Below the pieces are notes generated by a model. The model saw only the letters and a list, made by a program, of their open reading frames with translations. It was not told the origin of the DNA and made no database searches. Below, in pieces: positions 44,339 through 64,000 of a stretch of DNA of 64,000 bases. The translations under genes were made by a program, and so were the position numbers. Origin of the DNA: an uncultured Acidobacteriota bacterium (GTDB taxonomy: Bacteria > Actinomycetota > Acidimicrobiia > Spongiisociales > ZC4RG35); contig CAVQFU010000007.1 of the NCBI GenBank assembly GCA_963711895.1, forward strand, positions 547,827 to 611,826, given 5' to 3'. Positions within the stretch are counted from its first letter, which is position 1, and every line of letters begins with the position of its first letter.

Positions 44339-44426
44339 GATGCCTCCCTGGTCGTTGGTCGTGTCTTCTGGAGGACCGTACGGGCAGATCACTGGACCGG
44401 GCAATGAGTCGATCGGCCCATGGCGC

Positions 44427-44460: not shown

Positions 44461-44482
44461 TCTTCGTTGATCTGAGCTGTGC

Positions 44483-44657: not shown

Positions 44658-44730
44658 GAAGCCCCTCCTTGGGTCTGCGGTACTGACTTGCAAGTGATAT
44701 ATCGGTGCGATTCCGTCAAAAACCTGAGCG

Positions 44731-47482: not shown

Positions 47483-47507
47483 AGGGGCAAGGCTACCGTC
47501 GGCGGTG

Positions 47508-48076
47508 ATGAGTTCCTCGGACGGGCGCTGGCTGATCACGGGCGGGATCGGATCCGGTAAGAGTGAGGTTCGCCGGCTACTGGCGGAGCGGGGCATTCAC
47601 ACCGTCGACGCGGACGCGGTGGGTCACCTCGTTCTGGCCGGCGAAGGCTTCGCCCCGGTCGCCGAGCGATGGCCGGACGTCGTCCTCGAAGGCCAGATAG
47701 ACCGCCAGGCGCTGGCCCGGATCGTTTTCGACGACCCGAGAGAGCTCGAAGGTGCTCGAGGCGATCACTCATCCCTTGATCTTCGGCCGAATCGAGGCCG
47801 ATTTGAAGGGATTTTCTGGTGTGGCAGTCGTCGAGATGCCGTTGCTCGAGACCTCGATGGGCTGGCCGATGATCTTGGTGGATGCCGACGACGAGACACG
47901 TCTGCGTCCGGGCCGTGCAGCGGGGCATGGACGAAGCAGATGTCCGACGTCGAATGGCGTCTCAACCCAGCAGGGCAGAGTGGCTCGCGGCCGCCGACCT
48001 GGTGGTGCCCAATCATGGGCCGAGGGCTGTCCTCGACGAGACAGTCGCCAGCCTCTGTCGCTACTTGGTCGGTTGA
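47508..48076 (+). CDS. coaE: Dephospho-CoA kinase; two frameshifts as assembled (47751, near 47908)
   Basis: P-loop ITGGIGSGKS in the 47427 frame, VLEAITHPLIFGRIE...VVEMPLL in ORF 47752..48189, and RAVQRGMDEADVRRRMASQ... in ORF 47882..48076. Confidence 0.8.
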
Positions 48077-48086
48077 CACACGCGGA

Positions 48087-49678
48087 TCAGCCTTCGCTGA
48101 CAGGCAGGCTTCCCCTGGAAACGAGGTCTTGGATTCGTGCCATCCGATCGGGTGCGACGGCCTCAGGATCTTCAGCGCCGATCAGGTAGGTCGGCGCCGC
48201 TGGTACGAATTCCTGACCAAGCGCGGAAGACATGATTGCGCTGATGGCGTTGATCGGATCGGGCAATGTCGGAGCCCCGCACTCGTCCGGGATCTTGTAG
48301 GAGAGCATGACACCAAAACGCTCGCGATGTCGGAGTCCGACCATAGGTCTGGTGTGTCGGCGACTTGCTCGCCGGTGGCGGTTCCGTGGTCGCCTGTGAC
48401 GAGGATTGCGGTGTCATCGTCCAGATTGGCAGTGGTTTCGATGAGTAAGCGGTCCACGCAGCTCATCTGAGCCGAGGTGGCGGCCATACGGGACGCCCTG
48501 TCCTCGAAGATCGACGGGCCGTCTCCGACCGGCTCGCATTTCGCATCCACCATCAGTGGATCGTGTGGGAAGAGGAAATGAGCGAAGACATAATCGTGCG
48601 AATCGTTGTCGCCCACCTCTTCCAACACCTGCTGCAAAGACTTAGCTGTGTTGAAAGTGCCCGTGAGAAAATGGTGACGTCGCTCGGCCCAGTCGTGCAA
48701 CACGGTCGGGGCAAGGAGTCGGGTCAATTGCTCATCGTGCCAAGGGGAGTCGACACATCGATCCACCGTCGGCCCGCAAGTCGTCCCATCCCATCCGGAC
48801 GCGATGTGGGTGTACTCGAATCCAGCTGATTGGAGAGACCCGGAAACAAAATTCTCGCCTCGCAGTATGCGGAACAGGGAAGACCGATTTCCCCAACCCT
48901 TGGTTGGCCCCGCCTCGATAACGCTGTGCATCTGGAGGATGCTGGAGACCGACAGCGCGGTGAACGTGTGCCGGCTCCATGCGTCGGTCTCGACAGTGAG
49001 CCCATTGGCCGTCAGGCCCGATACCAACGGGGCGGGATCGTGTCCAAACCAACTCTCGGCGAGACGCAGGTTCGGGTAGGTGTCCACGATGACGACGACC
49101 ACATCCTCCACAGCACCCGAGGGAGCAGCGCTCACCGGTTGGGCCAGTTCGACCAATGAGTATGGCTCAGCGTCCGCTAAGTGCGCCGTGATGAGTTGAA
49201 GCAAGGGGACCAAACCCAGGGCGACGATCATTGAAGTGGCCAGTACCTTGAACAACAGAGGTGCCTTGGCCTTTCGCCCGACCCAGCCGAACACGACCAG
49301 GGCTACGGCGATACCGATCCCAATGAGGCTGTCCATCTTCTGCCACGACATGAGGAGAAAGATGAGCCCTCCGACTGCTAGGGCGACAGGCATCGTACCT
49401 GTGCTCCGACGAGTCAATAGGAGAAGGACCGCCACGCCGACGGCACCGAGGCCAAGACCCACGATGAGGATCTTCCACGGCGAAGAAAGTTCCGATGCGT
49501 TGACCGTCCAGAACTCGATCGACCGATAGAGCGCGGCAGAGAAGATCACGGCAATCGCCGGCCATTGACGGCGGCTAGTCGCCACATCCGGCGTCCGGTC
49601 AGTTAAGCGCTCCTGTGCCCGGGCGCGGGGTTTGGTCTCGACCACGGTTCCTGTTTCTCGATCTCTCCAGCTTGTCAA
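48087..49678 (-). CDS. Membrane-anchored sulfatase/LtaS-like (alkaline-phosphatase superfamily) protein, paralogue D; one frameshift (near 48325)
   Basis: N-terminal 4-5 TM helices, then VVVVIVDTYPN, FLFPHDP and ILVTGDHG. The C-terminal 75 aa are in ORF 48087..48344. It is a distant paralogue of the 53.5-58.3 kb array. Confidence 0.6.
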
Positions 49679-49764
49679 GTAGAACGGCTGATTGTGTGCC
49701 CAACTTGAGAAAAACCGGGCGTTAGCGGACGGATCTTGTCCCAGGTCACCGGTAGCCTCCGACC

Positions 49765-51772
49765 GTGCCCGATTTCAAGATCGTGTCCGACTTCGCCCCG
49801 GCCGGTGACCAGCCAGAGGCGATTGCAGCCCTGGCCGAGGGGATAGACAGGGGCGACCGATACCAGACCCTCCTCGGGATCACCGGATCCGGTAAGTCGG
49901 CCACCATCGCCTGGACGATCGAGCAGGTGCAGAAACCGACGCTGGTTCTGGCGCCCAACAAGGCGCTGGCAGCCCAGCTCGCCAACGAGTTCCGTCAGTT
50001 CTTCCCCCACAACCGGGTGGAGTACTTCGTCTCCTACTACGACTACTACCAGCCCGAGGCCTATCTGCCCCAGACCGACACCTACATCGAGAAGGACGCC
50101 ACGATCAACGACGAGATCGACCGCCTCCGTCACTCGGCGACGGCAGGTCTGCTGGTCCGGGACGACGTCATCATCGTGGCCTCGGTCTCGGCCATCTACG
50201 GCCTGGGCTCACCGGAGCAGTACATGGGCCAGCTCCTCCGACTGGTCCAGGGGGTCGAGTACCCCATGAAGGATGCGATTCAGCGTCTGGTCAACATCCA
50301 ATACGAGCGCAACGAGGTCAACCTGATCCGCGGCAAGTTCCGGGTGAAGGGCGACACGCTCGAGGTGTTCCCTTCATACGAGGAGACCATCGTCAGGGTG
50401 CAATTCTGGGGCGACGAGGTGGAGCGCATCATCAGGCTGAATCCGGTGACCGGTGAGGTGGTCGAGGAGCTGTCCGAGTTGTTCGTCTTCCCCGCCACTC
50501 ACTACGTCACCGAGCGGGAACGCATGCTGAAGGCGATCACCACGATCGAGGCGGAGCTCAAGAATCGTCTCGCCGAACTGGAGGGCAACGGCAAGATGCT
50601 GGAGGCGCAGCGTCTCCGGATGCGGACCAACTACGACCTGGAGATGATGCGTGAGGTCGGGTTCTGCTCGGGGATCGAGAACTACTCACGTCACCTCGAC
50701 GGGCGTGCCGCAGGGGAGGCGCCCTACACCCTCCTCGACTACTTCCCCAAGAACTACCTCACGATCATCGACGAGTCGCATGTGACCGTGCCCCAGATCG
50801 GCGGACAGTACGAGGGTGATCACTCCCGGAAGGAGGTCCTGGTCGAGCATGGTTTCCGCCTCCCTTCGGCCAAGGACAATCGTCCGCTTCGCTTCGACGA
50901 GTGGCTGGAGAAGGCAAATCAGGTCGTGTTCCTCTCCGCGACGCCGTCGAACTTCGAGATCTCCCACTCGACCCAGGTGGTCGAGCAGATCATCCGTCCC
51001 ACCGGTCTCATCGACCCCGAAGTGATGATTCGTCCCACGAAGGGCCAGATCGACGACCTGCTCCATGAGATCAGAGAGCGTGCCCTCCGGGAGCAGAGGG
51101 TGCTGGTGACCACTCTCACCAAGAAGATGGCCGAGGACCTGACCGACTACCTGCTGGAGATGGGAGTCCGGGCTCGGTACATGCACTCCGAGATCGACAC
51201 TCTGGAGCGGGTGCAGATCATGCGTGAGCTTCGACTCGGCGATTTCGACGTCCTGGTCGGGATCAACCTCCTTCGCGAGGGTCTCGACCTGCCCGAGGTG
51301 TCGCTGGTTGCGATCCTCGACGCCGACAAGGAGGGCTTTCTCCGCTCGGAGACCTCACTGATCCAGATCATCGGTCGGGCGGCTCGAAATGTCGACGGTC
51401 AGGTGGTCATGTACGCCGACAACGTGACCGAATCGATGAAGCGGGCGATCAACGAGACCAACCGCCGGCGCCGGGCGCAGACGGAGTGGAACACGGAGCA
51501 CGGAATCGACCCGCAGACGGTGAGAAAACGAGTGTCCGACATACTCGAATTGGTTCAGTCGGAGGCCCCGAAGGGCGATAGAAGAAGGCGGGAGGTCGAG
51601 CCGCGGAGGCCGATCGATCTCGAGGGTGACGACCTGACCAGGCTCATCATGAGTCTGGAGGACGAGATGCATGAGGCTGCCAAGGAACTGCAGATTCGAA
51701 TATGCCGCGCGTCTTCGCGACGAGGTCAACGAGCTCAGACGCGAGTTACGCGAGGTGGCCGAAGCAGGGTGA
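49765..51772 (+). CDS. uvrB: Excinuclease ABC subunit B; one frameshift as assembled (51694)
   Basis: [18 protein letters not shown], helicase motifs and VTESMKRAI. The C-terminal UVR motif [25 protein letters not shown] is recovered in the next frame after removal of the extra A at 51694. Confidence 0.95.
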
Positions 51773-52013
51773 CCTCGAGTTCGCTGCGTTAGGTAGCGGA
51801 GCGCACACCAGTGGGGGGAAAGGCAAGCAGAAGGCGCGAGGAGCTCTTCTGTCACCTTGTCTCGGCTGTCGGCGGCGTTGAACACCGGTCGATCGGCTCG
51901 CCTTTGGTGCTCCAATCAAACGCGGAGGCCAGGACGAGAGCTGCGACAGTCAACGGAGAAGCCAGGTTGCAGCTCTTGGGAGCGTGCTCGGCCGCAGTCG
52001 ACGAGCACTTGGA

Positions 52014-53112
52014 GTGCGGTTGAGCAGGGCTGCTCAAGGTCTGGAGCCGAGGACCCGCGAACGAATCCCGGGTCTCGATGGGGTCCGTGGCATGGCGGTG
52101 ATCCTCGTCGTTGTCTCGCACGCCGGGATCGGGGTGATGGACTCGGGTGGCAGGGTTGGAGTCACGCTCTTCTTCTCTGGTCCTGTCCGGGGTACCTGAT
52201 AACGCGCCTCCTTGTCGACGAGCACGACCGGACGGGATCGATACGACTCGGTGCCTTCTGAATGGCGGCGAGCTCTGCGACTACTGCCCGCGCTGTTCGT
52301 TTACCTGACGGGGCTCGCCCTCCTGGTGTGGTGGAGGCAGCTGGCACTTCCCGTGTGGGAGATGACCTGGCCCCCCGCCTTGTACGTCGCCAACTACGTG
52401 CAGTTGGCGGGCGGTGAGATGTATGCCCATGCCCATACCTGGAGCCTTGCGGTCGAGGAGCATTTCTATCTGCTCTGGCCGTTGCTCATTCTGGCCGGCG
52501 CAGTTCGTAGGGTGCGCCCACTCGTGATAGGGGTGAGCCTCCTCCTGACCTGGCGGCTGGCGATGGGGGTGATGAATCCGACGTGGGCGTTGATCTCATC
52601 TGACGCGAATGCCTACGCTGCCGGGTTTGGATGCCTTATCGCCGTCCTGGAGGCGCGGGATCGACTCCCGTCATTGCCTCGTTCCAGCGCAACAGTCGCG
52701 ATTTGCTCGCTGCTGCTCCTCAGCATGGTCCCGACCGAGGGTGGTTCTGCGGTGTGGCTACCTCCGGTCTCTGGCCCTCTTGTCGGCAATTGCCATCCTT
52801 GGCGTGCTCAAAGGTGAACATACCTACCTACGATCGAATGTCCTGGGGTGGTTCGGGACCATCTCCTATGCCCTCTATCTGTGGCATTTGCCACTCATGC
52901 GGCTTCCCGGGCTCAGCGAGACGGCGATCCTGCGCCTATGTGCTGCCGTGATCGCCGTCGCAGTCGCCTGGTGCTCCTGGATCCTGGTGGAGCGCCCGAT
53001 CATGCAGGGAAGACTGCGAGCGCGGATGCTGCAGATAGGCAGAGTCGACGAAACGTCGGCGGCGACAGGCAACACGAAGGATGCGTGGCTGTCTGATCTT
53101 CACCGGAACTGA
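52014..53112 (+). CDS. Acyltransferase family 3 (OafA/YrhL-like) membrane protein; about four frameshifts as assembled (52179, 52192, 52259, near 52750)
   Basis: AT3 motifs are spread over three frames: RIPGLDGVRGMAVILVVVSH, TLFF.VLSGYLITRLL, RRALRLLPALFVYL, HTWSLAVEEHFYLLWPLL, ISYALYLWHLPL. The start is uncertain. Confidence 0.7.
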
Positions 53113-53353
53113 GCTCGTTGGACAGCCGACAGAGAGGAGTCCATGACGTTCACGTCGGTGTCCAACCGAGGGCGGCGGTTTCCGGTCGAGCCTTCGGTCA
53201 CTGGTCAGCCGAAGTCTGGACTTTATTTCGTCATGCCTCGGGGATCGTGTAGCCGGTCACAGTGCCCCCCGCGATCCTGATTCCAAAGAACGAGAATCTG
53301 AGCGTGCCCAGAGGGTCACATGGCTCACCGTGGACCCTCGCAGCGCGAGAACA

Positions 53354-53539
53354 TCAGAGCTCGGCGGAGGTCTCCTGAGGCTGTGCCTCGGTGCCACGGA
53401 TCTTCGCCCATGCGGTATTGACGGCCTTTCGGATGTACTGGTAACCCAGACCGGCTACGGCGGCGGCTCCCAGGAGAATCTGGAATAGGGCGCTCCCGGT
53501 TACCGGGTCTAGATATGCGAAAACGAGTCGGGTCATCAT
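53354..53539 (-). CDS. 61-aa single-TM protein translationally coupled to sulfatase-like paralogue A
   Basis: ATGATG overlaps the upstream TGA (AATGATGA). MMTRLVFAYLDPVTGSALFQILLGAAAVAGLGYQYI... No family recognised. Confidence 0.45.
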   Translation of the reverse strand: MMTRLVFAYLDPVTGSALFQILLGAAAVAGLGYQYIRKAVNTAWAKIRGTEAQPQETSAEL

Positions 53540-55155
53540 TGTTCCTTCGTGAGTGTCGATAGAGAGTCGGCAGCGATGTCGGGATCCTTTAGCTCTTCCA
53601 CCGGACCACCGTAAGTGGCGATGAAATACCTCTTGTCCAGGAGGTCCATTGGTGATTCGGTGAGACATCCGATCAGCATTCTGAAGGTGTTCACGAGTTG
53701 GTGATCTTCAGATGGCTGCTGACAGTGGGCCGGAAAGCGAATAGCGCTGAAAATGGAAAATCGCTCCAAAATCTGTTCCGGCCGCGGCTCAGACAGAGGC
53801 GACAAAGGCTGGAATGAGTCAGGTCCGTGGTCGGCAGTGATCACGACCGCCGCCTCGGGGTCGAGATCCGGTATCAACTGCTCGATCGCCCGGTTTGCGC
53901 ATTCGATCTGTGCGACGTAGGCCTGGCGCCTGATAGCCAGCTCTGAGTCCGAGTATTCGCCACGACTGACGTTTCGCCCGTCCAGTAGGGGGGTCGGATG
54001 TGGCTGACATGTCGCGTCGAGGTGCAGCGGTGGGTGGGGGAGGACGAGATGCAGGAACGTGAAGGTGGGCTCTTCGATGTCGCCCTGGAACTCATCCCAG
54101 TTGCTGAGTTGCTCGAGTCTGGCCAAGTTCAGGGCAGTTGTGGGATCGCCGGACCCCGGATAGAGAAACGGGCCCACGGCCGTCCCCGCCAACAAGGCGT
54201 CACCCGTGACATCGATGACTGGTCCCGGCTCACAGCGATCCACCGCCGACCCGCACGTGTTCAACCAATGATCGGTATCGCCATGGATGTAGGTGTACCC
54301 GTTCGACTTGAGGAGTTCGACGAACTCGTTGTCGCCTGAGATGGCATCAGTGAGCATGTCGAGATCCGAATTCGAGATCTCGGACCCTGGCTGGGCCAGA
54401 TACTCCATCTCGAGCATCGATGTGATCGAGAAATGGGTTGATCCGTAGTTGGCGTTCGCGGAATCTGGAACTGTGAAACCCTCATCGGCGAGATAGCTGA
54501 GGAAGTCGGCGTTGTCGTACCCGTAAACGGTCTGCAGAACGTCATTTCGGGCATAGGCATCGAGGACGACGAACACGATGTCGGGGGTTTGCGACATCTC
54601 TCCTACCGGGACGTCTTGATGTGTGCTCACGATCGGATCCGGAGTGGTGAGCCGCGAGTGGGCCATCATGAGCAGGAGGGTGCCAGACAGCGTGACGCCC
54701 ACGGCGAACACAACCACACGGAACAGGCGACGGTCCGCATAGCGCGTCACCGCGGCGAGACACAGGGCGAAGAGCGAGATTGAGGCCAGCCAGTCGGGCA
54801 CTGGCCCAATTCCTGACAAACCACCCCAGTGCCAGAAAAATAGGACGGCAACGGAGGTCCAGGCCAGTGCCTTCCATCCCGACCGGGCCAGTTTTCTCGC
54901 CACGAGGTACACGACGAAAGAAGCGAAGGCAACGGCAAATCCAACAATGGTGGCGCTGCCAACCCCGATCATTGCCTGCTGTGGCCCACTGATCACGGCA
55001 AGGGGAATGTGGAACGACAAAGCGCACAGCTGGAGCAAGACCCAGATCCACGCGGGACCGATCGAATCTGCCGTCGACCTGGCTGATCTGATCTCGAGCG
55101 TCTCTTTGGCGGAGACGACATCCGATGGCCTTGCCCTCGGCTCGGCGATGCTCAT
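53536..55155 (-). CDS. Membrane-anchored sulfatase/LtaS-like protein, paralogue A (intact)
   Basis: ATG at 55155 inside the 917-aa ORF (ATGA overlap with the paralogue B stop). Five TM helices, then TPDIVFVVLDAYARND, DSANANYGSTHFS, FLHLVLPHPPLHLD and VVITADHGPDS. Confidence 0.7.
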   Translation of the reverse strand: MSIAEPRARPSDVVSAKETLEIRSARSTADSIGPAWIWVLLQLCALSFHIPLAVISGPQQAMIGVGSATIVGFAVAFASFVVYLVARKLARSGWKALAWTSVAVLFFWHWGGLSGIGPVPDWLASISLFALCLAAVTRYADRRLFRVVVFAVGVTLSGTLLLMMAHSRLTTPDPIVSTHQDVPVGEMSQTPDIVFVVLDAYARNDVLQTVYGYDNADFLSYLADEGFTVPDSANANYGSTHFSITSMLEMEYLAQPGSEISNSDLDMLTDAISGDNEFVELLKSNGYTYIHGDTDHWLNTCGSAVDRCEPGPVIDVTGDALLAGTAVGPFLYPGSGDPTTALNLARLEQLSNWDEFQGDIEEPTFTFLHLVLPHPPLHLDATCQPHPTPLLDGRNVSRGEYSDSELAIRRQAYVAQIECANRAIEQLIPDLDPEAAVVITADHGPDSFQPLSPLSEPRPEQILERFSIFSAIRFPAHCQQPSEDHQLVNTFRMLIGCLTESPMDLLDKRYFIATYGGPVEELKDPDIAADSLSTLTKEQ

Positions 55156-56758
55156 AGGTTGGCGCCATCCGGGTCGATGATCGGGAGCAAAGGTCCCTGT
55201 AGGTTCGAGGTGCTGTACCTGGGCTCCAACAGAGGTAAGGCATCCGTTTCGTAGACGCACTGCAGAACGATCCGGAAGATGTTGACAGCTTGGATGTTCT
55301 CGTCGTTGGGGTTCTCGCAGCCTTGGGGAAACCGAATCGCGGCGAGCGTCCCCGAACCGCTCTCGCGGCTGCTCCTGTGCCCAGATCCGCGGATCCGGAG
55401 CAAGAGACCCGAAGGAGTCAGGCCCGTGGTCAGAAGCCACCACGATGATGTCATCGTCGTCGACGTGATCCATGAGGCTCATCACGGCCGAGTTGGCACA
55501 GGCAATCTGGTCCACGTAGGCCTCTTTACGGAGGTCAACGACACCTGCTGATGTCGTATCGCCACGCATCGCCTGGCCGCCGAGATTGGGTTGGATCCGT
55601 GGCCGGCAGTTGGCGTCGAGGAACAGTGGCGGATGGGGGATAGCTAGATGCAGATATGTGAAGCTCGGCCCGCTTCCCACAGGCGCTGACACGGTATCCC
55701 AGGCTTCTAGCTGATCGATCCGTTCCAGGTTGAGCGAAGTCGACGGGTCACCCACACCTGGATAAAGGAAGGGACCCACGGGCGTTCGAGTCAGGAGCGC
55801 AAAAGCGGTTTGATCGATCCTGGGTCCGCTCAGGCAGAGGTCGGCAAATTCAGAACATCGGTTCAGCCAGTTGTCCGCAGCACCGTGGATGTACTCGTAG
55901 CCGTCCGCCTTCAGCCGCCGCACTACTGGGTTATCGCCGGAAACCACAGACGCAAGCATCTCCAGGTCGGAGTTGTCGATGGTGCCGTCCGAAAAGTTGA
56001 GGTAATCCATGTTGAGGATCGATGCCATTGACGTGTGGGTCGCCGTGTAATTGGCATTTGCGGAGTCGGCGACCTCGAATCCGGCCTCCTCGAGACCTCC
56101 TATGAACGATTCGTTGTCGTACCCGTACTCCTCCAACAACGTGTCTTGTCGCGGATACGCATCCAGCACGACGAAGACAATGTCCGGTGTCCGCACAGGG
56201 AGGCCCAGTTGTGGTGCCGCGAACAGGCGAGATCGACGTCGAGGGCTCGTTGATTCGATCGGCCGTGTTAAGGAACGCCATTGTCGCAAGGAGGGTCACG
56301 CTGATCGCAAACATTGCTCGACGAAACAGCGGTCTTTCCGCGATCCGCCTGAGTGTTATGCCAACCAAAAGCAGGATCAGGGTGGGAAGGAGCCACGAGA
56401 CCGCCCACCCTTGTGATCCCCAGGCTCCCCATTGCCAAAAGAATACAAGGCATGCTGAGCTCCAAGCGAGGGCAGTCCACTTTGATGCGCTACGACCGAG
56501 AACGAGGAACAGCGCAATTCCCAGCAAGGTCACCAATGCAGCCACTATCAGAGACGAGAATTGGTCGGTAAGAGCGCGTTGGGGCCCGGTGAGCCGGCTC
56601 AGCGGCACGAACGAAGCCAAGGCGCACAATTGGAGCCCTGCCCACCACCACGGAGGGCCCGGTAGAAGCGTGTTGCCAGCTGACGGAGTATCGACTTCGG
56701 TGGTTTCGGTCGAATCGTTCGTGTCGTCGCTAACTGCGACCGTCATCGAAGTGGACAT
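55152..56758 (-). CDS. Membrane-anchored sulfatase/LtaS-like protein, paralogue B; two frameshifts (near 56222, 55352)
   Basis: N-terminal TM domain in ORF 55931..56758, catalytic domain in the upstream half of ORF 53536..56289 (TPDIVFVVLDAYPRQD, DSANANYTATHTS, YLHLAIPHPPLFLD, VVASDHGPDS), and the C-terminal 80 aa in ORF 55152..55454. Confidence 0.7.
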
Positions 56759-56761
56759 GCC

Positions 56762-58329
56762 CTACCCGGTCCCGTCGGGATCGATCAGCTGGATGATCGG
56801 CCCGCCGAAACTGGAAGCTCGATACTCGGGCTCCAACATCGGGAAGCTCGGCACTCGGGTACACACAGTTGAAGACCACACGAAACACGTTCACGAGCTG
56901 CAGGTTGGGATCGAGCGGCGTGGAGCACGACGATGGCAGCTTTACGGCGGTCATCGTCGCAAGCCTTTCGTGAATCTGTTCCTGGGACCAAGTCGCCGGA
57001 TCAGCGTTGAGAAGTCCGTGCGAGTCCGGCCCGTGGTCTGCCGTTATGACCACGATCTCGTCGCCTTCGAGTTGACCGAGGAATGCCAAGACCGTCGAGT
57101 TGGCACACTCGATTTGGTCGATGTATGCATTCTTACGGAGCTCGACTATCTCCGGAGACATGGAAAGGAAGTTGATCAATTGTCCACCCAGGTTGTGGTG
57201 CACGCGTGGTTCGCACTTGGAATCGAGGAACAGCGGGGGATGAGGCAGTCCGAGGTGGAGGTAGGTGAAAGTTGGGCGATCTCCTGCCTCGGCCGACCAC
57301 GAGTCCCAGTTTCGCAACTGATCAATTCGCTGCCGATTGAGCGCAGTGGTCGGGTCGCCCGAGGTTGGATGGAGTAGAGGCCCGACCGGGGTCTGGACAA
57401 TAGGGCGAACGTGGTCTGGTCGATGGCTGGGCCGGGTAAGCAGAGATCCGCGACATCAGAGCAATGGTTCAGCCAGTTGTCCGCGCTGCCGTGCACATAG
57501 GCATATCCAGCTTTCCGGAACGAGTCGACCACGGGGTTGGCGCCCGAAGTCATTGACTCCAGCAGACGTAGGTCTGAGTGCCCGATTTCGCCCCGTGGGC
57601 TATCGAGATAGCCCATGCTGAGCAGCGAGGGCATCGACAGGTGGGTCATGGTGTAGTTCGCGTTTGCGGAGTCGGCCACCTCGAAACCGGATTCCCCGAG
57701 GGTCGATAGGAAGTCGCTGTTGTCGAACGAGAAGTCGTCCTGAAGGACATCAGCGCGCGCATACGAGTCCAGGACCACGAGTACCACGTCCGGGGTGTGC
57801 ATCGGAGTGCCGAGCTCGGGGATTCCCGCCACCTGCAATGACGGTGGAGCTGCGTTGGCTACGTCGACCCCAACGAGCATTAATGCTGTGCCACTCAGAG
57901 TCACGCTGGCAATGAGCGACCGCCCTCCGAAAAAGCCGATGGTCTGCGATTCGGCGCACCGCCATCAGAACAACAACGAGCAGAGCCGTCGAAACCACCC
58001 AGGAGACGAGGGTCCCTCCCGAGGACCAGGCGCCCCACTGCCAGAAAAAGATCAGACAGGTCGATGCCAGGGCGAGGGCTCTCCAGTCAGTCTTCGCGAA
58101 CCGGCTGAAGATCAGAAAGAGAAGAATTCCAACGACGGTGATTGCCGCGCCGACCAACAAGGCAGAGACCGGGTTGGTCAATGCACGTTGTGGGCCCGAG
58201 AGGCGGCTCAGGGGCACGAAGAACGCCAGGGAAGCAAGCTGTAGTCCGGCCCACCACCATGTAGGCCCACTGACCACCAGGGGCTCGGGGGCGCGTGGAA
58301 ACCTGCACTTCTGTCATTGAAAGGGACAT
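56762..58329 (-). CDS. Membrane-anchored sulfatase/LtaS-like protein, paralogue C; four frameshifts (near 58289, 57914, 57390, 56807)
   Basis: The start MSLSMTEV is homologous to MSTSMTV of paralogue B. The pieces lie in ORFs 58087..58368, 57750..58277, 57176..57904 and 56730..57317 (TPDVVLVVLDSYARAD, DSANANYTMTHLS, YLHLGLPHPPLFLD, VVITADHGPDS). The reconstructed end is GGPIIQLIDPDGTG*. Confidence 0.65.
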
Positions 58330-58418
58330 CGACCCACCATCTTCACGGCTCGAGTTCAGTATCGGCAATGATTCGTTCGACCTGATATGAATCGTGACGT
58401 GTCGTGGTTCCCTTGTTG

Positions 58419-59776
58419 ATGGTTCTAACCTTCAATCCGTGGATCAGGCATCACGCAGACGCCGCCGCATCGCTGGAGCGGCCCCTCGTCTACATCGCGC
58501 GATGAGCGCCGACATCCTCCATCCCGGGCACATCAACATCATCGAGGAAGCCCGAGGTAGAGGGTCGGTCGTCGTAGGTCTCCTGACCGACCAGGCGATC
58601 GCCTCATACAAGAGGGTGCCCTTGATGACTTACGACGAGCGACGAGCAGTCGTCGAGCAGATCCGGGGCGTGGAGCTGGTCGTGCCGCAGAGCACGCTCG
58701 ACTACGTGCCGAACCTGACCGAGCTCAAACCCGACTTCGTCGTGCATGGAGACGACTGGAAGGAAGGGGTGCAGGCACCCATCCGACAACTTGTGATCGA
58801 CGCGCTCGAGGCATGGGGCGGCCAATTGATCGAGCCTGCCTACACGCCCGGTATCTCGTCGACACGCGTGCAAAAGACGCTGGTCGAGATCGGCACCACC
58901 CCGGAGATCCGACGTCGCCAGCTCAAACGACTCCTGGCGGTGAAGCCCCTGGTCAGGGTCCTGGAGGCTCACAACGGTTTGTCGGGTCTGATCGTCGAGC
59001 ACGTCTCGATCGAAAATGACGCTGGCCGATCTGAAAGCTTCGACGCGATGTGGCTGTCGAGCCTCACCGATTCGACGGTTAAGGGGCGTCCCGACACCGA
59101 GTACGTCGACTTGACGTCGCGGATGACGACCATCCAGGAGATCCTCGAGGTCACCACCAAACCGATCATCTACGACGGCGACACCGGCGGAATGCCCGAC
59201 CACTTCGCCCTCAAGGTCAAGACACTGGAGCGACTCGGAGTCTCAGCCGTCGTGATCGAGGACAAGGTGGGACCGAAGCGGAACTCGTTGTTCGGTACCG
59301 AGGTCGCGCAGACCCAAGACGATCCGGTGGCGTTCGTGGAGAAGATCTCGATGGGGCAAGGCCGCGCGAGGCCACCGATGACTTCCAGATCTATGCCCGA
59401 ATCGAATCGCTGATCCTCGAGAAGGGCGTGGAGGACACGGTTCAGCGCGGTGAGGTCTACCTTGAGGGTGGTGCCGACGGCCTGTTGATCCACGCCCGGG
59501 ACAAAGACCCCGAGCGCGCTATTCGAGGTCCTTGCTCATTTCCGTGGAAGGACCCCGCTCGTGGTCGTGCCTAGCAGCTACAGCCATGTCTCCGAGGCTG
59601 AGCTCGCGGAGAACGGGGCGAACGTGGTGATCTACGCGAACCACCTTCTGCGGGCCGCATATCCGGCGATGGTGGCGACGGCCGAGTCGATCCTCAGCCA
59701 TGGCCGGGCTCATGAGGCGGATCAAACTGCCTTGCCGATCTCCGCGGCCCTTGAACTCATTCCCGGCAACAGATGA
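58419..59776 (+). CDS. Bifunctional cytidylyltransferase-PEP mutase (Fom1/PntC-Ppm-like); about four frameshifts (near 58500, 59355, 59370, 59521)
   Basis: The N-domain is a CTP-transferase fold with PLVYIA / [14 protein letters not shown] (HxGH). The C-domain is a PEP mutase with [18 protein letters not shown] and the PepM-discriminating motif [10 protein letters not shown]. The tail ([54 protein letters not shown]) is recovered in two further frames. The ATG 58419 start is tentative. Confidence 0.8.
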
Positions 59777-60894
59777 TCGACCCGGTCGAGGCGCTGCGTG
59801 TTCTGACGCAGGCGGGTATCCAGTTCTATGCGGGTGTCCCAGACTCGCTTCTCAAGGATCTGAACTCCTGCATCGCCGATCAGGTGGACGCCTCACAACA
59901 TGTGGTGGCACACAACGAGGGTGGGGCAATTGCCCTCGCTGCCGGCCACTATCTGGCGACGGGGCGGCCCGGGCTGGTCTATATGCAGAACTCGGGGCTG
60001 GGAAACGCGGTCAATCCTCTTATCTCCCTGACTTCATCGGAGGTCTATGGCATCCCCATGGTGTTGATGATCGGGTGGCGGGGCCAACCCGGCCGTCACG
60101 ACGAACCCCAGCACGCTCACCAAGGGCGTGTCACCGAGACGATGCTGGCAACCCTTGACGTGCCGGTATATCCGCTAGCTGGAGAGATGCCGGGTTGGTC
60201 CGATGTGATTGCCGAAGCAGTGGCAGATGCCGAGCGTTCTATGCGACCGACGGCCTTACTGGTGTCGTCGGGCACCTTCGCCCCCTACCAGGTCATAACC
60301 GATCCTCAACGCGATGAGCGACCCCAACGAATGGACACGATGGCGACCATCCTCGATCGCCTTCCCGAGGGGACCTGCTATATCGCCACCACTGGGTACA
60401 CCGCCCGTGCAGCTCGCTGCGCTGCGCGAAACTAGGGGCGAGTCCGGTGAACGCGACTTCCTCGGCGTGGGTTCGATGGGCCACGCCGCGTCGGTGGCGG
60501 TCGGGCTGGCACTGGCCCGAGCAGATGTCCCTGTCGTCTGTCTGGATGGTGATGGCTCGCGATGCATCATGGGGTGATGGCCCTGGTCGGAGGCCGTGGC
60601 TCCCACAATCTCGGACACATATTGCTCAACAATCGGGTTCACGAGTCGGTGGGTGGGCAGCCGACCGCACTGCTCGCGGTGCAGGCTGTGGGAGTTGCCA
60701 AGGCGTGCGGCTACAACGCCGCATTCTCATGCAGATCTCTTGAAGAGCTCGAGGCAGCCCTCGGTTCGACCAGCGATTCGGGTGGGCCATGGTTCATCGA
60801 AGTCGAAATCTCCGTTGGCACGATCGGCGACCTTCCCAGGCCAGATCGGTTCAGCTCTCGTTTGGGACACTTGAGAAATTCGATGCAGGCTTGA
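59773..60894 (+). CDS. ppd: Phosphonopyruvate decarboxylase (ThDP-dependent); two frameshifts (60409, near 60558)
   Basis: ATGA overlap with the mutase. YAGVPDSLLK, HNEGGAIALAAGHYLATG, MQNSGLGN. The ThDP motif GSMGHA...CLDGDGS...LNNRVHESVGGQPT is spread over ORFs 59773..60435, 60314..60577 and 60562..60894. Confidence 0.8.
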
Positions 60895-62012
60895 GCAATC
60901 TCATATTCGGCGAGGGCGCTGCGTCGCAACTGAAGGATCTCCTAGGCCAGTATTCAGAGCCAATTCTGGTCGTGAGTGGGCGTGGCTCTTACCGGCAGTC
61001 GGGTGCAGCGGAGGTGATCAAGGAGGCCCTGGCCCAACGCCGCTGGACGCGATATGAAGTCAGCGAACGACTGCCTGGGGAGTCATCGGTTAATGGGGGA
61101 CTCGCCTCGATCGGATCCAGTCGACCCGTCGCCATCGTGGCCGTTGGAGGTGGGGCGGTCGTGGACACGGCCAAAGTCCTGGCTTTGGCAATCACCAATC
61201 CGGGTCTCAATCCGATCGAAGGGTCATCCGCCTTGGCTGCACGCGGTCGATCTGCTCGCGATGCCAACTACGGCGGGATCCGGATCAGAACGCACTCCGT
61301 ACGCGGTCTACTACATGGGCGCCCAAAAACACTCGGTAGCCCACGCGAGTCTCACTCCTAACCATGCCATTGTCGATCCAACTTTGACTTACTCGATGGG
61401 GCGAGAGCTAACAGCGACTTCGGGGCTTGACGTCATATGCCACGCGGTTGAGTCCGCATGGGCTGTCTCGGCATCCGACGAATCGAGGCAGTCCTCATAT
61501 GTCTCCCTCGGGGAGGTGTGGGATGCTATCGGCCTGGCCGTGCATGCCCCTGACCGAGGGGCCCGTCGAGCCATGGCTCGCGCCAGCACAGACGCAGGAG
61601 CCGCCATCGCTACCGCCAAAACAACGGCATCCCATGCCTTGTCTTACTACCTGTCTGCCGTGCACGCCGTACCGCACGGGCTTGCCGCTGCCCTCACCCT
61701 CGGACCGATGTTGGTGTTCAACTCGGGGATCGACGAAGCCAATGTCACTCCCGGCGCCGACCAGGCCACGGTCAAGGAGGCGATCGAGCGGATTTGCGAC
61801 ATTCTGGGTGCAAACGACCCAAGTGAGGCTCAAGCCCTGATCCAGGCCAAGGTGAGCGATCTCGGTTTTCCCAACCGGCTCTCGAATGTGGGCGTAAGCA
61901 ACCATCAGGAGATCGAAGCGATGGTGGACTCGGTCAATCAGCAGCGCCTCGCCAACAATCCCCGGCGATTCGACCGAGACGAGCTTCGAACCTTCCTCGA
62001 GGAGCTCCTTGA
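60891..62012 (+). CDS. Iron-containing alcohol dehydrogenase (phosphonoacetaldehyde reductase-like, PhpC/FomC type); at least two frameshifts (near 61242, 62005)
   Basis: AVGGGAVVDTAKV, MPTTAGSGSE, LDVICHAVES, HALSYYL...HAVPHGLA. The homologous N-terminus (EKFDAGLSNLIFGEG) begins near 60873 but has no in-frame start codon. The TTG at 60891 (TTGA with the ppd stop) is the first usable start, so another indel is likely. The end is inferred at the TGA 62010-62012, overlapping the next TTG start. Confidence 0.65.
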
Positions 62013-63152
62013 GTCTTCGTCACGCCCTGCGGGAGTCGTCGACGCTCGGGGAACTCGTCTTGCGAGACCCGCACATGCGCCCGGTGGTGTTCTATGCCGA
62101 GGACGCCTTCACCTTCGCTCAGTATGAGGGATACGTCGTCGAGCTCCTGTCGAGGGGAGTCCTCCCGGTGGTCTATGTGACGTCGGATGTGAAAGATCCT
62201 CTCTTTAAGAATGCTCCGGTCGGCCTCGAGGTCAGGTACATCGAAAAGCAGCTGGAGCGCTTCATGTCACAGATCACAGGTTCTCTGATCGTGATGACTA
62301 TGCCGGACCTGGGCAGGTTCCATGTGCCGAAACCCGAGCGTTCCAAGGTTCTCTACGTTTTCCACTCGCTCAACAGCGTCCATACGGCCTATCGAGAACG
62401 GGGCTTTCGACCACTATGACGCTTTTGCTTGCACCGGGCCGCACCATGTCCGCGAGCTGACGGTTCTTAGGGCGGCCGGCGGGGCGAACCCCGCTGAGCT
62501 GGCCGAGATCGGCTACTACAAGCTCGATCGAATAGCCCGCGCCCATGCGGACTGGGTCGGTGTGGGCCGCACCACGCCGGAGGTGTTGCTGGCGCCTTCG
62601 TGGGGCCGGCAGAATCTGTTGGAGGCCCACGGGGAAGTAATCGTCGAGTCGCTATTGGCCTCCGGATTCTCGGTGACGATTCGCCCTCATCCTCAGTTCT
62701 TTCACTCGCTCTACCCGGAAGGCGCCGACGTGATGAGAGGTCTTCAAAGACGGTTTGGTGACCTCGACGATGTGAGGTTCGACCTGTCGGTGCGGAGCGA
62801 AGACACTTTCCACTCATCCGCGCTAATGATCAGTGACTGGTCCGGCGCAGCTTTCGAGTACGCACTGGGCACTGCGAGACCGGTGCTTTTCATTGATACG
62901 CCACCCAAGATCTTCAATCCCGATTGGCGGGATGCGGGACTGCCGGGCTTCGAGGACGAGATGCGCTCCAGGGTTGGCCGAGTTGTCTCCACCACCGAGG
63001 TGTCCGACGTCGGCGATAGCGTTACCAACATGTTGGGCGATCCGAGCCTGGATGGGCAACTGACATCACTGCGCCAACGAGTCGTGTTCAATCCCGGGCA
63101 GAGCGCGGCGGCATGCGCCGATCTGATAGAGAGATTGGTCGAGCGCCTCTGA
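62009..63152 (+). CDS. TagB/TagF-family (CDP-glycerol glycerophosphotransferase-like) phosphotransferase; one frameshift (near 62400)
   Basis: Glyphos_transf-like pattern: FHSLNSVHTAY, FDHYDAFACTGPHH, GYYKLD, VLLAPSWG, RPHP, LMISDWSGAAFEYALGTARPVLFID. Split between ORFs 62009..62419 and 62322..63152. Confidence 0.65.
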
Positions 63153-63198
63153 AGCTCAAGAGGCCGCTGAGTGCGGCCGATTCTCAAGACCTGACCTC

Positions 63199-64000
63199 GT
63201 GACGAAGCTATCCGTTCTCATGCCCGTCTACAACGAGGCCCGCACCTTGCGGACCATCGTTCAACGCGTCCTCGCCTCGCCGGTCGACTGTGAGATCGAA
63301 CTGGTATGCGTCGATGACTGTTCGAGTGACAACTCTCTCGAGATCCTCCGCGAGTTGGCCGCGACACGACGACAGGATCAGGGTCATCGCGCAACCGGTC
63401 AACATGGGCAAAGGGAAGGCCATCCGGACAGCGATCGACAACATGAGCGGGGACATCGGGATCATCCAGGATGCCGACCTCGAATATGACCCGGAGGAAT
63501 ATCCGAAGGTCATTCGCCCGCTGCTCGACGGCAAAGCCGACGCTGTCTACGGCTCGCGCTTCGCCTCCAGCGAGGTGCGGAGGGTCCTCTTCTTCTGGCA
63601 CGCCCTCGGCAATCGGGTCCTGACAATGTTCTCCAACATGGCGAACGACCTGAACCTGACCGACATGGAGACCTGTTACAAGGCGGTCCGGGGCGACGTG
63701 CTGAAGCGACTCCGTTTGACATCGGATCGTTTCGGACTGGAGCCCGAGTTGACCGCCCGGCTGGCGCAATGGGGTGCCCGGATCTACGAGGTCCCGATCA
63801 GCTATCACGGACGGACGTACGCCGAGGGTAAGAACATCGGGTGGCGTGACGGTGTCGAAGCGCTTTGGCTCATCTTCAAGTTCAGATTCCTCGACACGAA
63901 GGCAACCGACGAGACGTCAGTGGTGACGAGGCAATCGTTGGGCCGCGCCACCCGCTTTCGCAAATGGTCGTTGGAGCGATTCGGGGATCATCTCGGTCAG
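63199..64000 (+). CDS. Family-2 glycosyltransferase (polyprenol-phosphate sugar synthase-like), 3' end outside the window; one frameshift (63364)
   Basis: LSVLMPVYNE and VCVDDCSSD in ORF 63199..63489. The sequence IRVIAQPVNMGKGKA, QDADLEYD (DxD), VYGSRF and beyond continue in the next frame, which stays open to the window end. Confidence 0.8.

Follow-up and report, generated by a model that had tools for sequence, protein, structure and literature searches.

A candidate cell-envelope phosphonate decoration locus built on hydroxyethylphosphonate

The 64,000-nucleotide stretch of DNA analysed here (the window) ends in a phosphonate operon, which raises the question of which phosphonate is made and whether it is destined for the cell surface. 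Taken as a whole, the locus is best explained as a system for decorating the cell envelope with phosphonate, based on 2-hydroxyethylphosphonate (HEP), a reading that we consider fairly probable from its gene content.

Operon layout and predicted HEP synthesis

The operon (positions 58419-64000, plus strand) comprises five co-directional genes, and Pfam domains together with motifs read from the sequence confirmed its earlier description as a five-gene phosphonate operon. In order, the genes are:

58419..59776, plus strand: bifunctional cytidylyltransferase-PEP mutase (CyTase-Ppm), Fom1-type (PF01467 and PF13714)
59773..60894, plus strand: phosphonopyruvate decarboxylase (Ppd), ThDP-dependent (TPP_enzyme_N and TPP_enzyme_C)
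60891..62012, plus strand: Fe-ADH, PhpC/FomC-like phosphonoacetaldehyde reductase (Fe-ADH and ADH_Fe_C)
62009..63152, plus strand: TagF-like GT-B transferase of ~380 aa, phosphonate-cluster-associated (weak PF04464)
63199..64000, plus strand: GT2-methyltransferase fusion, N-terminal ~270 aa (PF00535, Glycos_transf_2, E 8.5e-12)

Gene 1 starts at the ATG at 58419. Genes 1 and 2 share 4 nt, as do genes 2 and 3, where the TTG start of Fe-ADH lies in a TTGA shared with the end of Ppd; once one indel is corrected, genes 3 and 4 would share a TTGA too, and 46 nt separate genes 4 and 5. The GC content of the region is on the low side, 0.59-0.62 against 0.62-0.67. None of the five genes is intact as deposited: about ten single-site indels fall in 5.6 kb (four in CyTase-Ppm, two in Ppd, one or two in Fe-ADH, and one each in the TagF-like and GT2 genes).

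The CyTase-Ppm indels were placed near 58500, 59356, 59368 and 59516 by tblastn and three-frame reading. The ORF at 58394-59413 matched the Pfam families CTP_transf_like (E 5e-15) and PEP_mutase (E 1.6e-22), and the mutase C-terminus lay in the ORF at 59561-59776. The CyTase domain carries HPGH and GISST; the corrected mutase, examined for its catalytic residues, has EDK-X5-NS, ARIE and LIHAR, the equivalents of R159 and H190 falling within 59371-59514, which is out of frame as deposited. Outside the shifted stretch, the protein was 91% identical to an intact 441-aa relative (P0002; tblastn), and an intact PEP mutase orthologue cleared the NCBIfam equivalog TIGR02320 (354 bits, cut-off 320). 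Alignment of the CyTase domain with the cytidylyltransferase domain of Fom1 (5X3D) was gapless, at 60-62% identity; the CyTase domain matched TagD (1COZ) with just E 3e-9 and scored far under the TIGR01518 cut-off.

Ppd, with indels near 60412 and 60560 (frames read), was matched over its full length by the intact Ppd proteins of three orthologous loci (L001, L003 and L006; tblastn), and the L003 orthologue cleared TIGR03297 (403.7 bits, cut-off 312.5). Fe-ADH carries one indel at 61227-61248 and probably another, near 62007, which deletes the stop, so that the deposited ORF extends to 62127 (Pfam matches in 60789-62127); the top NCBIfam match of its orthologue was TIGR03405 (Phn_Fe-ADH, E 1.8e-52), under the cut-off. 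These matches bear out the earlier note's assignments of PEP mutase, Ppd and Fe-ADH, and the identity to 5X3D its view of the fusion as Fom1-type.

That Fom1 acts on HEP is reported by Cho et al. 2017, as quoted in PMC6697681. Between uvrB and uvrA, neither six syntenic loci (L001-L006) nor the P0002 contig had a gene for an aminotransferase, radical-SAM enzyme, HppE, MpnS or HepD. Since the orthologous loci lack aminotransferase, radical-SAM and HppE genes and the CyTase domain shares 60% identity with Fom1, the activated species is likely CMP-HEP and not CMP-AEP, as had been suggested before.

The TagF-like transferase and the EptA/LtaS-like genes

The fourth gene had been called TagB/F-like, a label that holds as distant kinship only: the Glyphos_transf match in the ORF at 62322-63152 was weak (E 0.0027; 17.1 bits, under the Pfam cut-off of 22.1). 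Corrected for its single indel (near 62399), the protein aligned end to end with relatives of 380-381 aa and retained 64 of the 65 family-invariant residues. The AF2 model of P0121, which is 80% identical to the window protein, had a pLDDT of 94 and a GT-B fold; its best Foldseek match was the TagF-like capsule polymerase 8QOY, with many other GT-B enzymes scoring nearly equal. In an alignment with Cps3D and TarL, the family motifs APSW, RPHP and (S/T)DWSxxxxEY fall on APTW, RGH and TDYSSxxYD. PF04464 was the sole Pfam family matched among the 34 members that make up our alignment and profile (A1), in 23 of them, and fused relatives exceeded its threshold (42-45 bits). Profile A1 retrieved no TagF from the PDB sequences, and no NCBIfam model matched the protein.

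Among 25 loci from GTDB species representatives, CyTase-Ppm, Ppd and Fe-ADH adjoin a TagF-like gene of ~380 aa in 23. The neighbourhood occurs in three different gene orders, in records labelled Acidimicrobiia, Gaiellaceae, Actinomycetes, 'Acidobacteriota', Terriglobia, Planctomycetota, Myxococcota, Chloroflexi/Chloroflexia and Alphaproteobacteria. This neighbourhood across several phyla, together with the fusion contexts described below, gives strong support by association to the earlier proposal of a CMP-phosphonate donor for the TagF-like enzyme, which we put forward as a testable hypothesis; the literature searched contained no characterisation of the transfer step.

The earlier account of the operon missed its conserved, divergently transcribed partners, EptA/LtaS-like membrane genes of the sulfatase family. 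The genes upstream of the operon include:

48182..49678, minus strand: sulfatase-family membrane protein, more distant paralogue, flanked by coaE and uvrB (PF00884, E 2.8e-8)
51984..53112, plus strand: Acyltransferase_3-family membrane gene in three frames, flanked by uvrB and the sulfatase genes (PF01757)
53536..55155, minus strand: sulfatase-family membrane protein copy A, 539 aa in one frame (tblastn to the L001/L002 orthologues)
55167..56644, minus strand: copy B, tandem paralogue (tblastn frames -1/-2/-3; A2 profile hmmsearch)
56841..58265, minus strand: copy C, tandem paralogue (tblastn frames -3/-1/-3; A2 profile hmmsearch)

Copy A is predicted to have five N-terminal TM helices and an extracytoplasmic alkaline-phosphatase-type domain, an EptA/LtaS/PbgA-like architecture. 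In the alignment of its family D199, T240, H369, H374, D442 and H443 are invariant and the formylglycine motif (C/S)xPxR is absent. The AF2 model of the family (pLDDT 90) had PbgA, EptA and MCR-1 as top Foldseek matches, the phosphonate monoester hydrolases 4UPH and 2W8S also being among the matches. Copy B is broken by about two frameshifts and, as deposited, is joined in frame with copy A in an 886/917-aa ORF (P0241 being the deposited 886-aa call); copy C, with about two frameshifts, is transcribed divergently from the phosphonate operon. The more distant paralogue (28% identity to the cluster sulfatases; A2 profile E 8e-49), whose position is likewise filled in L002, L003 and L018, is a possible accessory member of the system. 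The acyltransferase gene, three successive ORFs of which match PF01757 profile positions 2-52, 73-226 and 247-320, may have an O-acyl tailoring role in the island, its membership of which is uncertain.

Elsewhere, YidC-like, TagF-like and Sulfatase domains are combined in single polypeptides (P0385, P0407 and P0381), and P0379 is a two-domain YidC-like/TagF-like fusion. All three Firmicutes-like fusion contexts that were looked up (P0385, P0381 and P0379) were phosphonate clusters: L028 holds an AEP transaminase, a PntC-type NTP_transf_3 and LicD genes, whose products might instead perform the phosphonyl transfer in that cluster, L029 holds Ppd, and L030 CyTase-Ppm and Ppd. Neither the window nor the actinobacterial loci code for a YidC-like domain. 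On the strength of these fusions, we assign the three tandem EptA/LtaS-like genes (53.5-58.3 kb, minus strand) to the phosphonate system.

Proposed route and a one-step alternative

The GT2 gene, with one indel at ~63365 and its 3' part cut off by the window end, was 76-87% identical to residues 1-270 of the 465-466-aa GT2-methyltransferases of L001, L002, L003 and L006, and its top NCBIfam matches were AglJ, PgfS, ArnC and PpgS. It thus resembles a polyprenyl-phosphate-sugar synthase and is not an obvious primer, which, together with the fused methyltransferase, speaks against the earlier suggestion of a glycopolymer primed by the GT2. The order in L001-L006 is GT2-methyltransferase, a polytopic membrane protein (with or without sulfatase-family genes), then uvrA.

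Judging by family membership, the mutase domain would convert PEP to phosphonopyruvate, Ppd would yield phosphonoacetaldehyde, Fe-ADH would reduce this to HEP, and the N-terminal Fom1-type CyTase domain would form CMP-HEP from CTP and HEP. The cytoplasmic TagF-like enzyme may then use CMP-HEP to place a hydroxyethylphosphonyl group on a hydroxyl of an acceptor bound to the membrane (a glycerolipid, glycolipid or polyprenol-linked glycan), releasing CMP. At the outer face, the EptA/LtaS-like enzymes, with a Thr nucleophile, may pass the phosphonyl head group from this lipid intermediate to a surface glycopolymer, to which the GT2-methyltransferase, as a lipid-phosphate sugar donor synthase, and the polytopic AZOBR_p60025-family membrane protein encoded just past the window may contribute sugars. 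We infer the donor, acceptor and product of the TagF-like family from association and homology. About 17 of the 25 loci have sulfatase-family genes no more than 10 kb from the core, and L009, L013 and L020-L022 have none at that distance, so that such a two-step relay would not be universal.

TagB/F enzymes work on lipid-linked polymers in the cytoplasm, which favours a one-step cytoplasmic model, as do the several loci whose four-gene core has no sulfatase-family gene nearby. The TagF-like enzyme would cap or polymerise HEP on an undecaprenyl-linked glycan that is then exported, and the sulfatase-family proteins would be phosphonate-monoester/phosphodiester hydrolases, consistently with the 4UPH and 2W8S matches, or remodelling/anchoring enzymes, and not HEP transferases. 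We judge this combination rather unlikely, since TagF-like and sulfatase-family domains are covalently fused via a YidC-like membrane domain, many lineages have more than one sulfatase-family paralogue flanking the operon, the full-length architecture and best structural matches are those of EptA/MCR-1/PbgA-type transferases and lipid-binding proteins, and the conserved cluster in L001-L006 shows no ABC or Wzx exporter.

Frame breaks and relation to known phosphonate pathways

Were the frameshifts real, the operon would be a recently inactivated pseudogene array in a lineage that no longer makes phosphonate. The density of indels, with further ones in the sulfatase and acyltransferase genes next to the operon, agrees with this, as does the lower GC content, expected of a dispensable surface island; the indels are concentrated at 47-64 kb, with few in homopolymers, whereas all 19 Pfam-positive ORFs tested in 1-44 kb were whole. 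However, outside the island the essential coaE is split over three frames and a histidine kinase is also split, and related ENA 'contig_N' and MFD MAG long-read assemblies have similar breaks elsewhere, including in uvrA and uvrB. In-frame stop substitutions and large deletions are both absent, and relaxed selection is not seen, either in the invariant residues of the TagF-like protein or in the mutase, with its catalytic motifs and its close identity to an intact relative. Because the essential coaE is broken too and 64 of 65 invariant residues are retained, the indels are probably consensus errors of long-read metagenome assembly; gene decay is a quite improbable explanation.

A diffusible small-molecule phosphonate, fosfomycin-like or otherwise HEP-derived, with cytidylylation as a transient handle, as in fosfomycin biosynthesis, whose first three proteins (Fom1, Fom2 and FomC) are those of this locus (PMC6697681; PMC8158854), and with the TagF-like and GT2 genes drawn from an unrelated neighbouring glycan pathway, is very improbable, since genes for Fom3-type B12 radical-SAM, HppE, FomD, MpnS, HepD, peptide ligase and exporter are absent from the syntenic loci, translation of the TagF-like gene is coupled to that of Fe-ADH, the gene remaining beside the core despite gene-order changes across phyla, and all other conserved neighbours are membrane or glycan enzymes.

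In the envelope decoration system that we favour, the proposed use of CMP-HEP by the TagF-like enzyme parallels that of CDP-glycerol by TagB/TagF. This kind of system is not new, since phosphonoglycans that carry HEP have been described from actinomycetes (Yu et al. 2014; see PMC8942020 and PMC13576164, which cite it). We regard the locus as a probable variant of known phosphonoglycan/phosphonolipid tailoring clusters, with a transfer step that is a hypothesis open to test, and whose putative attaching enzymes, TagF-like and EptA-like, recur beside phosphonate genes in many phyla.

The phosphonate operon and its interrupted reading frames

All five domain sets of the co-directional genes that the earlier note had described from position 58419 to the end of the window were recovered by Pfam (Glyphos_transf weakly), and sequence reading confirmed the ATG at 58419 as the start of the first gene. 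These genes encode a cytidylyltransferase-PEP mutase fusion (CyTase-Ppm), a phosphonopyruvate decarboxylase (Ppd), an Fe-ADH, a TagF-like GT-B transferase and a GT2, the last being clipped by the window end. The proposed coupling by overlaps held for genes 1/2 and 2/3, which share a 4-nt stop/start overlap, while the TTGA overlap of genes 3/4 appeared only after correction of one indel. Alignment to intact relatives revealed about ten frame changes across the five genes, and further split genes were found outside the operon.

58419 to window end, plus strand: CTP_transf_like and PEP_mutase, TPP_enzyme_N/TPP_enzyme_C, Fe-ADH/ADH_Fe_C, weak Glyphos_transf and Glycos_transf_2 domains (Pfam)
~58500, 59356, 59368 and 59516, plus strand: four indels in CyTase-Ppm (alignment to intact relatives)
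~60412 and 60560, plus strand: two indels in Ppd (alignment to intact relatives)
~61227-61248 and probably also 62007, plus strand: one or two indels in the Fe-ADH gene, the one at 62007 abolishing its stop (alignment to intact relatives)
~62399, plus strand: one indel in the TagF-like gene (alignment to intact relatives)
~63365, plus strand: one indel in the GT2 gene (alignment to intact relatives)
near 47.0 kb, outside the operon: split histidine kinase (Pfam domain completeness)
47.4-48.1 kb, outside the operon: coaE, split over three frames by two breaks
52.0-53.1 kb, outside the operon: split acyltransferase_3 gene (Pfam domain completeness)

The deposited assembly has identical breaks, its called CyTase-Ppm protein (P0001) being a 303-aa fragment on a 617,564-bp NCBI/ENA contig. 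Gene intactness was judged by Pfam domain completeness, GC3 frame segmentation and ORF scoring being too noisy, with boundary errors of up to ~150 nt. Frame-breaking indels were concentrated in the last ~17 kb (47000-64000), where two of the three sulfatase-family genes upstream of the operon were likewise broken, as against about 19 whole genes in 1-44000. Indeed, the 19 Pfam-positive ORFs checked in 1-44 kb had complete domains in a single frame (including FtsW, MurG, MurC, MurB, LspA, RluD, rhomboid, TadB/C, ArsA-like, ThyX, EamA, Nth, MatE and MFS). GC content was lower in the indel-rich 47000-64000 stretch (0.59-0.62 versus 0.62-0.67), several indels lay in GCGCG/CGCG contexts, homopolymers accounting for only a few, and a megablast of the region against plasmids returned no match.

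We read these indels as the result of a locally poorer consensus in a long-read metagenome assembly, because coaE is essential yet broken, because the corrected TagF-like protein retains 64 of 65 family-invariant residues, because the mutase shares 91% identity with an intact relative, and because breaks occur at other sites, uvrA and uvrB included, in sister assemblies (ENA 'contig_N' records, MFD MAGs). A recent genuine inactivation of the window's genes is improbable beside these observations.

Elsewhere, the window starts inside a dcw cell-division/wall cluster (1-6300; FtsW, MurG, MurC and MurB, each in a single frame). At 23364-24987 (minus strand), two neighbouring ORFs (206 aa and 385 aa) each match the C-terminal part of the ThyX (Thy1) profile, and may represent either a tandem duplicate or two domains in an uncommon arrangement. 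A Tad/Flp pilus locus (37358-44693; CpaE-like ATPase with a receiver domain, TadB, TadC and a minus-strand Flp pilin), followed by a LuxR-type two-component pair, lies upstream of the phosphonate island.

The predicted route towards CMP-activated 2-hydroxyethylphosphonate

Direct reading of the window located the mutase motifs EDK-X5-NS and LIHAR together with the Mg/substrate residues (equivalents of the DxD, of R159 and of H190), the latter two falling within the out-of-frame stretch 59371-59514. With these catalytic residues kept, and with an intact 441-aa relative (P0002, 91% identical) scoring 354.4 bits against the TIGR02320 cut-off of 319.55, the assignment as a PEP mutase was borne out. 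The fused cytidylyltransferase domain (PF01467, E 5e-15, HPGH and GISSTR motifs present) showed 60% ungapped identity over 130 residues to the Fom1 domain 5X3D (62% over 138 residues for P0002) and only remote similarity to TagD, consistently with the Fom1-type fusion that had been proposed. A role as a TagD-like CDP-glycerol synthase was rejected, since the domain is 60% identical to Fom1 and far under the TagD equivalog. The Fom1 domain cytidylylates 2-hydroxyethylphosphonate (HEP) according to Cho et al. 2017 (cited from PMC6697681). HEP is also the predicted substrate here, because the window domain is 60% identical to that characterised one, because an Fe-ADH is present and because there is no transaminase (AEPT) that would lead to 2-aminoethylphosphonate (AEP).

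The ThDP-dependent Ppd was likewise confirmed: the orthologue of a syntenic locus (L003) reached 403.7 bits against the TIGR03297 equivalog cut-off of 312.5, and the window copy aligned at full length, to residues 1-374 of the Ppd of another syntenic locus (L006), when two frame changes were allowed. The Fe-ADH gave clear Fe-ADH and ADH_Fe_C Pfam matches, and the best NCBIfam match of its orthologue was the phosphonate-associated TIGR03405 (Phn_Fe-ADH), at 178 bits versus a cut-off of 423.7; it is thus a putative phosphonoacetaldehyde reductase of the PhpC/FomC type, a function suggested by operon context.

In the six syntenic loci (L001-L006) and in the 91%-identical JGI contig carrying P0002, the island lies between uvrB and uvrA. 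It begins with one to three divergently transcribed sulfatase-family genes, continues with CyTase-Ppm, Ppd, Fe-ADH and the TagF-like gene, then sometimes a sulfatase-family gene, a 465-aa GT2-methyltransferase fusion and sometimes another sulfatase-family gene, and ends with a 360-380-aa polytopic membrane protein ahead of uvrA. The order Flp, response regulator, histidine kinase, coaE, uvrB ahead of the island is shared with the P0002 contig, and L002 keeps the order from Flp to uvrB, but without a called coaE.

The earlier note had considered that an AEP transaminase, radical-SAM or HppE gene might lie downstream; up to uvrA none was found in the six loci or the P0002 contig. Their islands contained no aminotransferase, radical-SAM, HppE, MpnS or HepD gene, an Aminotran_5 AEP transaminase was absent from the window as well, and Fom3 (B12 radical-SAM), Fom4/HppE and FomD were all missing both from the window and, as far as uvrA, from the syntenic loci. 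A fosfomycin-type pathway was therefore rejected for lack of its tailoring genes, and a fosfomycin-like fate of HEP is unlikely. By family membership, PEP would be converted to phosphonopyruvate, phosphonoacetaldehyde, HEP and finally CMP-HEP, and because the syntenic islands lack aminotransferase, radical-SAM, HppE, MpnS and HepD genes, HEP activated as CMP-HEP is the best prediction for the product of the cytoplasmic part.

The TagF-like family and its candidate partners at the envelope

Once corrected, the window TagF-like protein aligned end to end with a ~380-aa family (2,617 matches in a protein search), and when 1.84 billion representatives were searched exhaustively with an HMM, 984 members were recovered at E<=1e-30 and, at the looser E<=1e-10, 1,983. 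PF04464 (Glyphos_transf) was the sole Pfam family matched, by 23 of the 34 aligned members at E<=0.01 (best 2e-7). Its gathering threshold of 22.1 bits was reached neither by the window fragment (E 0.0027, 17.1 bits) nor by an 80%-identical relative, P0121 (19.6 bits), and was exceeded by fused relatives (42-45 bits). No NCBIfam model matched the protein, and the 34-member profile found no TagF match among PDB sequences. The AF2 model of P0121 (pLDDT 94) adopts a GT-B fold with two Rossmann-like halves, and its top Foldseek match was 8QOY, a TagF-like capsule polymerase, with epimerases and GT1/GT4 enzymes nearly equal in score. In a Firmicutes-type member, APSW, RPHP and ITDWSxxxYEY align with APTW, RGH and ITDYSSxxYD of Cps3D and TarL, and APSW, RPHP and SDWSGAAFEY are invariant in the 34 members and kept in the window copy. 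The 'TagB/F-like' designation of the earlier note thus stood as regards fold and motifs and failed at the PF04464 threshold, the relationship being very distant; judged from sequence and model, the label is justified at superfamily level, without implying that the protein belongs with the characterised CDP-glycerol enzymes. The cluster contained no tagD/tarI-type gene, the Fom1-type domain being its only cytidylyltransferase. In JGI records, many stand-alone TagF-like proteins (P0121, P0122, P0124 and others) are labelled 'YidC/Oxa1 family membrane protein insertase', in what looks like a label transferred from fusion proteins with a 60KD_IMP domain ahead of the TagF-like domain.

One genome per GTDB species was scanned with narrow patterns made from the two most conserved peptides of the family, which yielded 25 loci, all from MAGs, labelled Acidimicrobiia, Gaiellaceae, Actinomycetes, 'Acidobacteriota', Terriglobia, Planctomycetota, Myxococcota, Chloroflexi/Chloroflexia and Alphaproteobacteria. 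The TagF-like gene adjoined CyTase-Ppm, Ppd and Fe-ADH in 23 of the 25 loci, one exception being at a contig edge, and all 23 have an Fe-ADH in place of an AEP transaminase. Its position varied (downstream of Fe-ADH, upstream of Ppm, or divergent), and 12 pairs of matches across the CyTase-Ppm and TagF-like protein searches sat on contigs of identical size. The association expected from the earlier proposal of a CMP-phosphonate-using TagF-like enzyme was thus upheld, and this adjacency, conserved through rearrangement, is the main support for such a candidate function.

The glycan part of the cluster differs between lineages. In actinobacterial loci, large predicted DUF6020/DUF2079 membrane proteins adjoin the phosphonate core (L012 14641-16311, L016 11336-12964, L011 13774-15300), and L012 further encodes an ABC-2 transporter permease together with RmlA- and RmlB-like sugar-nucleotide enzymes. 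According to NCBIfam, the GT2 of the operon resembles the polyprenyl-phosphate sugar synthases AglJ, PgfS, ArnC and PpgS; the same polypeptide includes a methyltransferase domain as well as a TM helix at its C-terminus, and the next gene encodes a polytopic 'cell surface glycopolymer formation' protein of the AZOBR_p60025 family. The GT2 and its neighbour point to an extracytoplasmic glycosylation, possibly with methylated sugars, while a teichoic-like chain primed by the GT2, as once suggested, is not indicated by a synthase of this type joined to a methyltransferase.

The sulfatase-family genes upstream of the operon encode EptA/LtaS-like membrane proteins.

53536-58265, minus strand: three tandem sulfatase-family paralogues (copies A, B and C)
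48182-49678, minus strand: fourth sulfatase-family paralogue

As deposited, copies A and B form a single fused 886/917-aa ORF (P0241), with no stop between them in that frame. Copy A, in a single reading frame, has five N-terminal TM helices by hydropathy, followed by an extracytoplasmic PF00884 domain with an invariant set of metal ligands and Thr nucleophile (D199, T240, H369, H374 and D442-H443). Its model (pLDDT 90) had PbgA, EptA and MCR-1 as best full-length Foldseek matches. A true, formylglycine-dependent sulfatase was rejected, the motif (C/S)-x-(P/A)-x-R being missing from copy A; a search of copy A against PDB sequences gave no match, and no NCBIfam model matched the sulfatase-family proteins. 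About 17 of the 25 loci, among them those of Planctomycetota and Actinomycetes relatives, carry genes of this kind at most 10 kb from the core.

Moreover, YidC-like (60KD_IMP), TagF-like and Sulfatase domains are joined in single polypeptides (P0385 and P0407, and P0381 in another domain order), and some other family members consist of YidC-like and TagF-like domains only. The three fusions looked up all sit in phosphonate clusters: one with an AEP transaminase, a PntC-type nucleotidyltransferase and two LicD genes (L028), one two genes downstream of a Ppd (L029), and one beside CyTase-Ppm and Ppd within an RgpF-type cell-wall polysaccharide locus (L030). A profile built from the YidC-like part of the fusion proteins found no such domain in the window or in 27 loci. 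In the Firmicutes-like RgpF locus of L030 (10956-12386), as in L031 and L032, CyTase-Ppm is followed by a Radical_SAM + CTP_transf_like fusion (476 aa) and then by Ppd.

Beyond CMP-HEP the scheme is inferred throughout, on the grounds of domain fusion, homology and genomic neighbourhood. The TagF-like enzyme would transfer the hydroxyethylphosphonyl group from CMP-HEP to the hydroxyl of a membrane-bound acceptor, from which EptA/LtaS-like enzymes of the outer face would pass the phosphonyl group to the final glycopolymer through a Thr-linked intermediate. EptA, LtaS, OpgB and GacH move phosphoethanolamine or glycerophosphate from phospholipids, and the proposed outer-face step would parallel this head-group transfer. 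We regard the general model, in which CMP-HEP is made and then moved to the envelope by the TagF-like enzyme, as somewhat favoured, and the specific two-step lipid relay as about half as likely. It is also only tentatively that we propose TagF-like enzymes and EptA-like ectoenzymes, fused to a YidC-like domain in some phyla, as an unrecognised multi-phylum machine installing phosphonates on the envelope via a lipid-linked intermediate made from CMP-HEP or CMP-AEP. Since HEP has a primary hydroxyl of its own, its polymerisation by the TagF-like enzyme is even conceivable, which would give a poly(hydroxyethylphosphonate) resembling a teichoic acid.

Decoration of lipids and glycans is the presumed role of about half of the phosphonate pathways in bacteria, and the steps that follow cytidylylation have been called enigmatic (PMC6697681, PMC8942020). 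HEP is also reported to be one of the major phosphonates bound to polysaccharides in the environment (PMC13576164). Surface phosphonate tailoring via cytidylyl activation is therefore a known class, of which the candidate transfer machinery and its breadth had not been described: in the literature searched, no paper ties a TagF-like/glycerophosphotransferase or EptA-like enzyme mechanistically to CMP-phosphonates, nor describes or assigns the transferase for CMP-HEP or CMP-AEP acceptors. The comparative evidence names concrete candidates for this missing step, in a family that is almost always beside PEP mutase genes and sometimes fused to its proposed EptA-like partner. If true, the model would improve the genome-based prediction of surface-bound phosphonate makers in soils and waters, and would extend the donors known for TagF and EptA enzymes by a new class.

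Comparison with known systems

With TagB, TagF, TarL and Cps3D (8QOY), the TagF-like family has in common the GT-B fold and the APxW, HP and (S/T)D(Y/W)S motifs, and a donor with a CMP leaving group would be chemically analogous to CDP-glycerol; in contrast to these enzymes, the family is associated with PEP mutase genes rather than with tagD or tarI, and sometimes carries YidC-like/sulfatase fusions. The sulfatase-family proteins share with EptA/MCR-1, LtaS, OpgB and GacH the five TM helices and extracytoplasmic PF00884 domain, the metal ligands and the Thr nucleophile, but occur as several tandem paralogues with no sequence-level match to a solved structure or NCBIfam model. Known members of the EptA/LtaS type take a phospho-alcohol from a lipid of the membrane and place it on a glycan or lipid of the cell surface; a phosphonolipid donor, as needed here, is to our knowledge not known for them. 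'Multiple sulfatases' have been noted in Selenomonas AEP clusters, with no mechanism given (Li and Horsman, PMC8942020).

The fosfomycin pathway of Streptomyces wedmorensis (Fom1/Fom2/FomC) has the same first three proteins, and CMP-HEP is the expected activated intermediate in both. However, the fosfomycin cluster proceeds with Fom3 (a B12 radical-SAM methyltransferase), Fom4/HppE and FomD, whereas the core described here, without these genes in the window and syntenic loci, is followed by the TagF-like transferase, the GT2-methyltransferase and membrane proteins; because the latter stand in place of the tailoring genes, CMP-HEP is probably a transfer donor here, unlike the transient handle of the fosfomycin pathway. 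Pnt pathways follow the same logic, from a cytidylyltransferase fused or adjacent to Ppm through a CMP-phosphonate to the cell surface (PntC, LicD; Rice et al. 2019, PMC6697681), and 23.6% of Ppm proteins carry a PF01467 fusion (PMC6697681). There, PntC is an AEP-specific PF12804 enzyme and LicD-like transferases are proposed (PMC6697681), while the window combines HEP as the predicted phosphonate, a PF01467 cytidylyltransferase and TagF-like GT-B and EptA-like candidate transferases; L028 indicates that a TagF-like/sulfatase fusion can accompany the AEP/PntC/LicD set.

Of the ppm loci, 8.5% are HEP neighbourhoods, with known products only in Nitrosopumilus and Stackebrandtia (PMC8942020), and HEP phosphonoglycans are established in two actinomycetes (Yu et al. 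2014, as cited in PMC8942020 and PMC13576164). The Glycomyces and Stackebrandtia systems share the logic proposed here, being actinobacterial HEP pathways of the PhpC branch that place HEP on an extracellular polysaccharide. Their glycans reportedly contain SAM-derived O-methyl sugars, with HEP esterified to hexose and to glycerol. Such O-methyl sugars and glycerol-HEP esters would fit the GT2-methyltransferase fusion and a glycerol-directed, TagF-like transferase.
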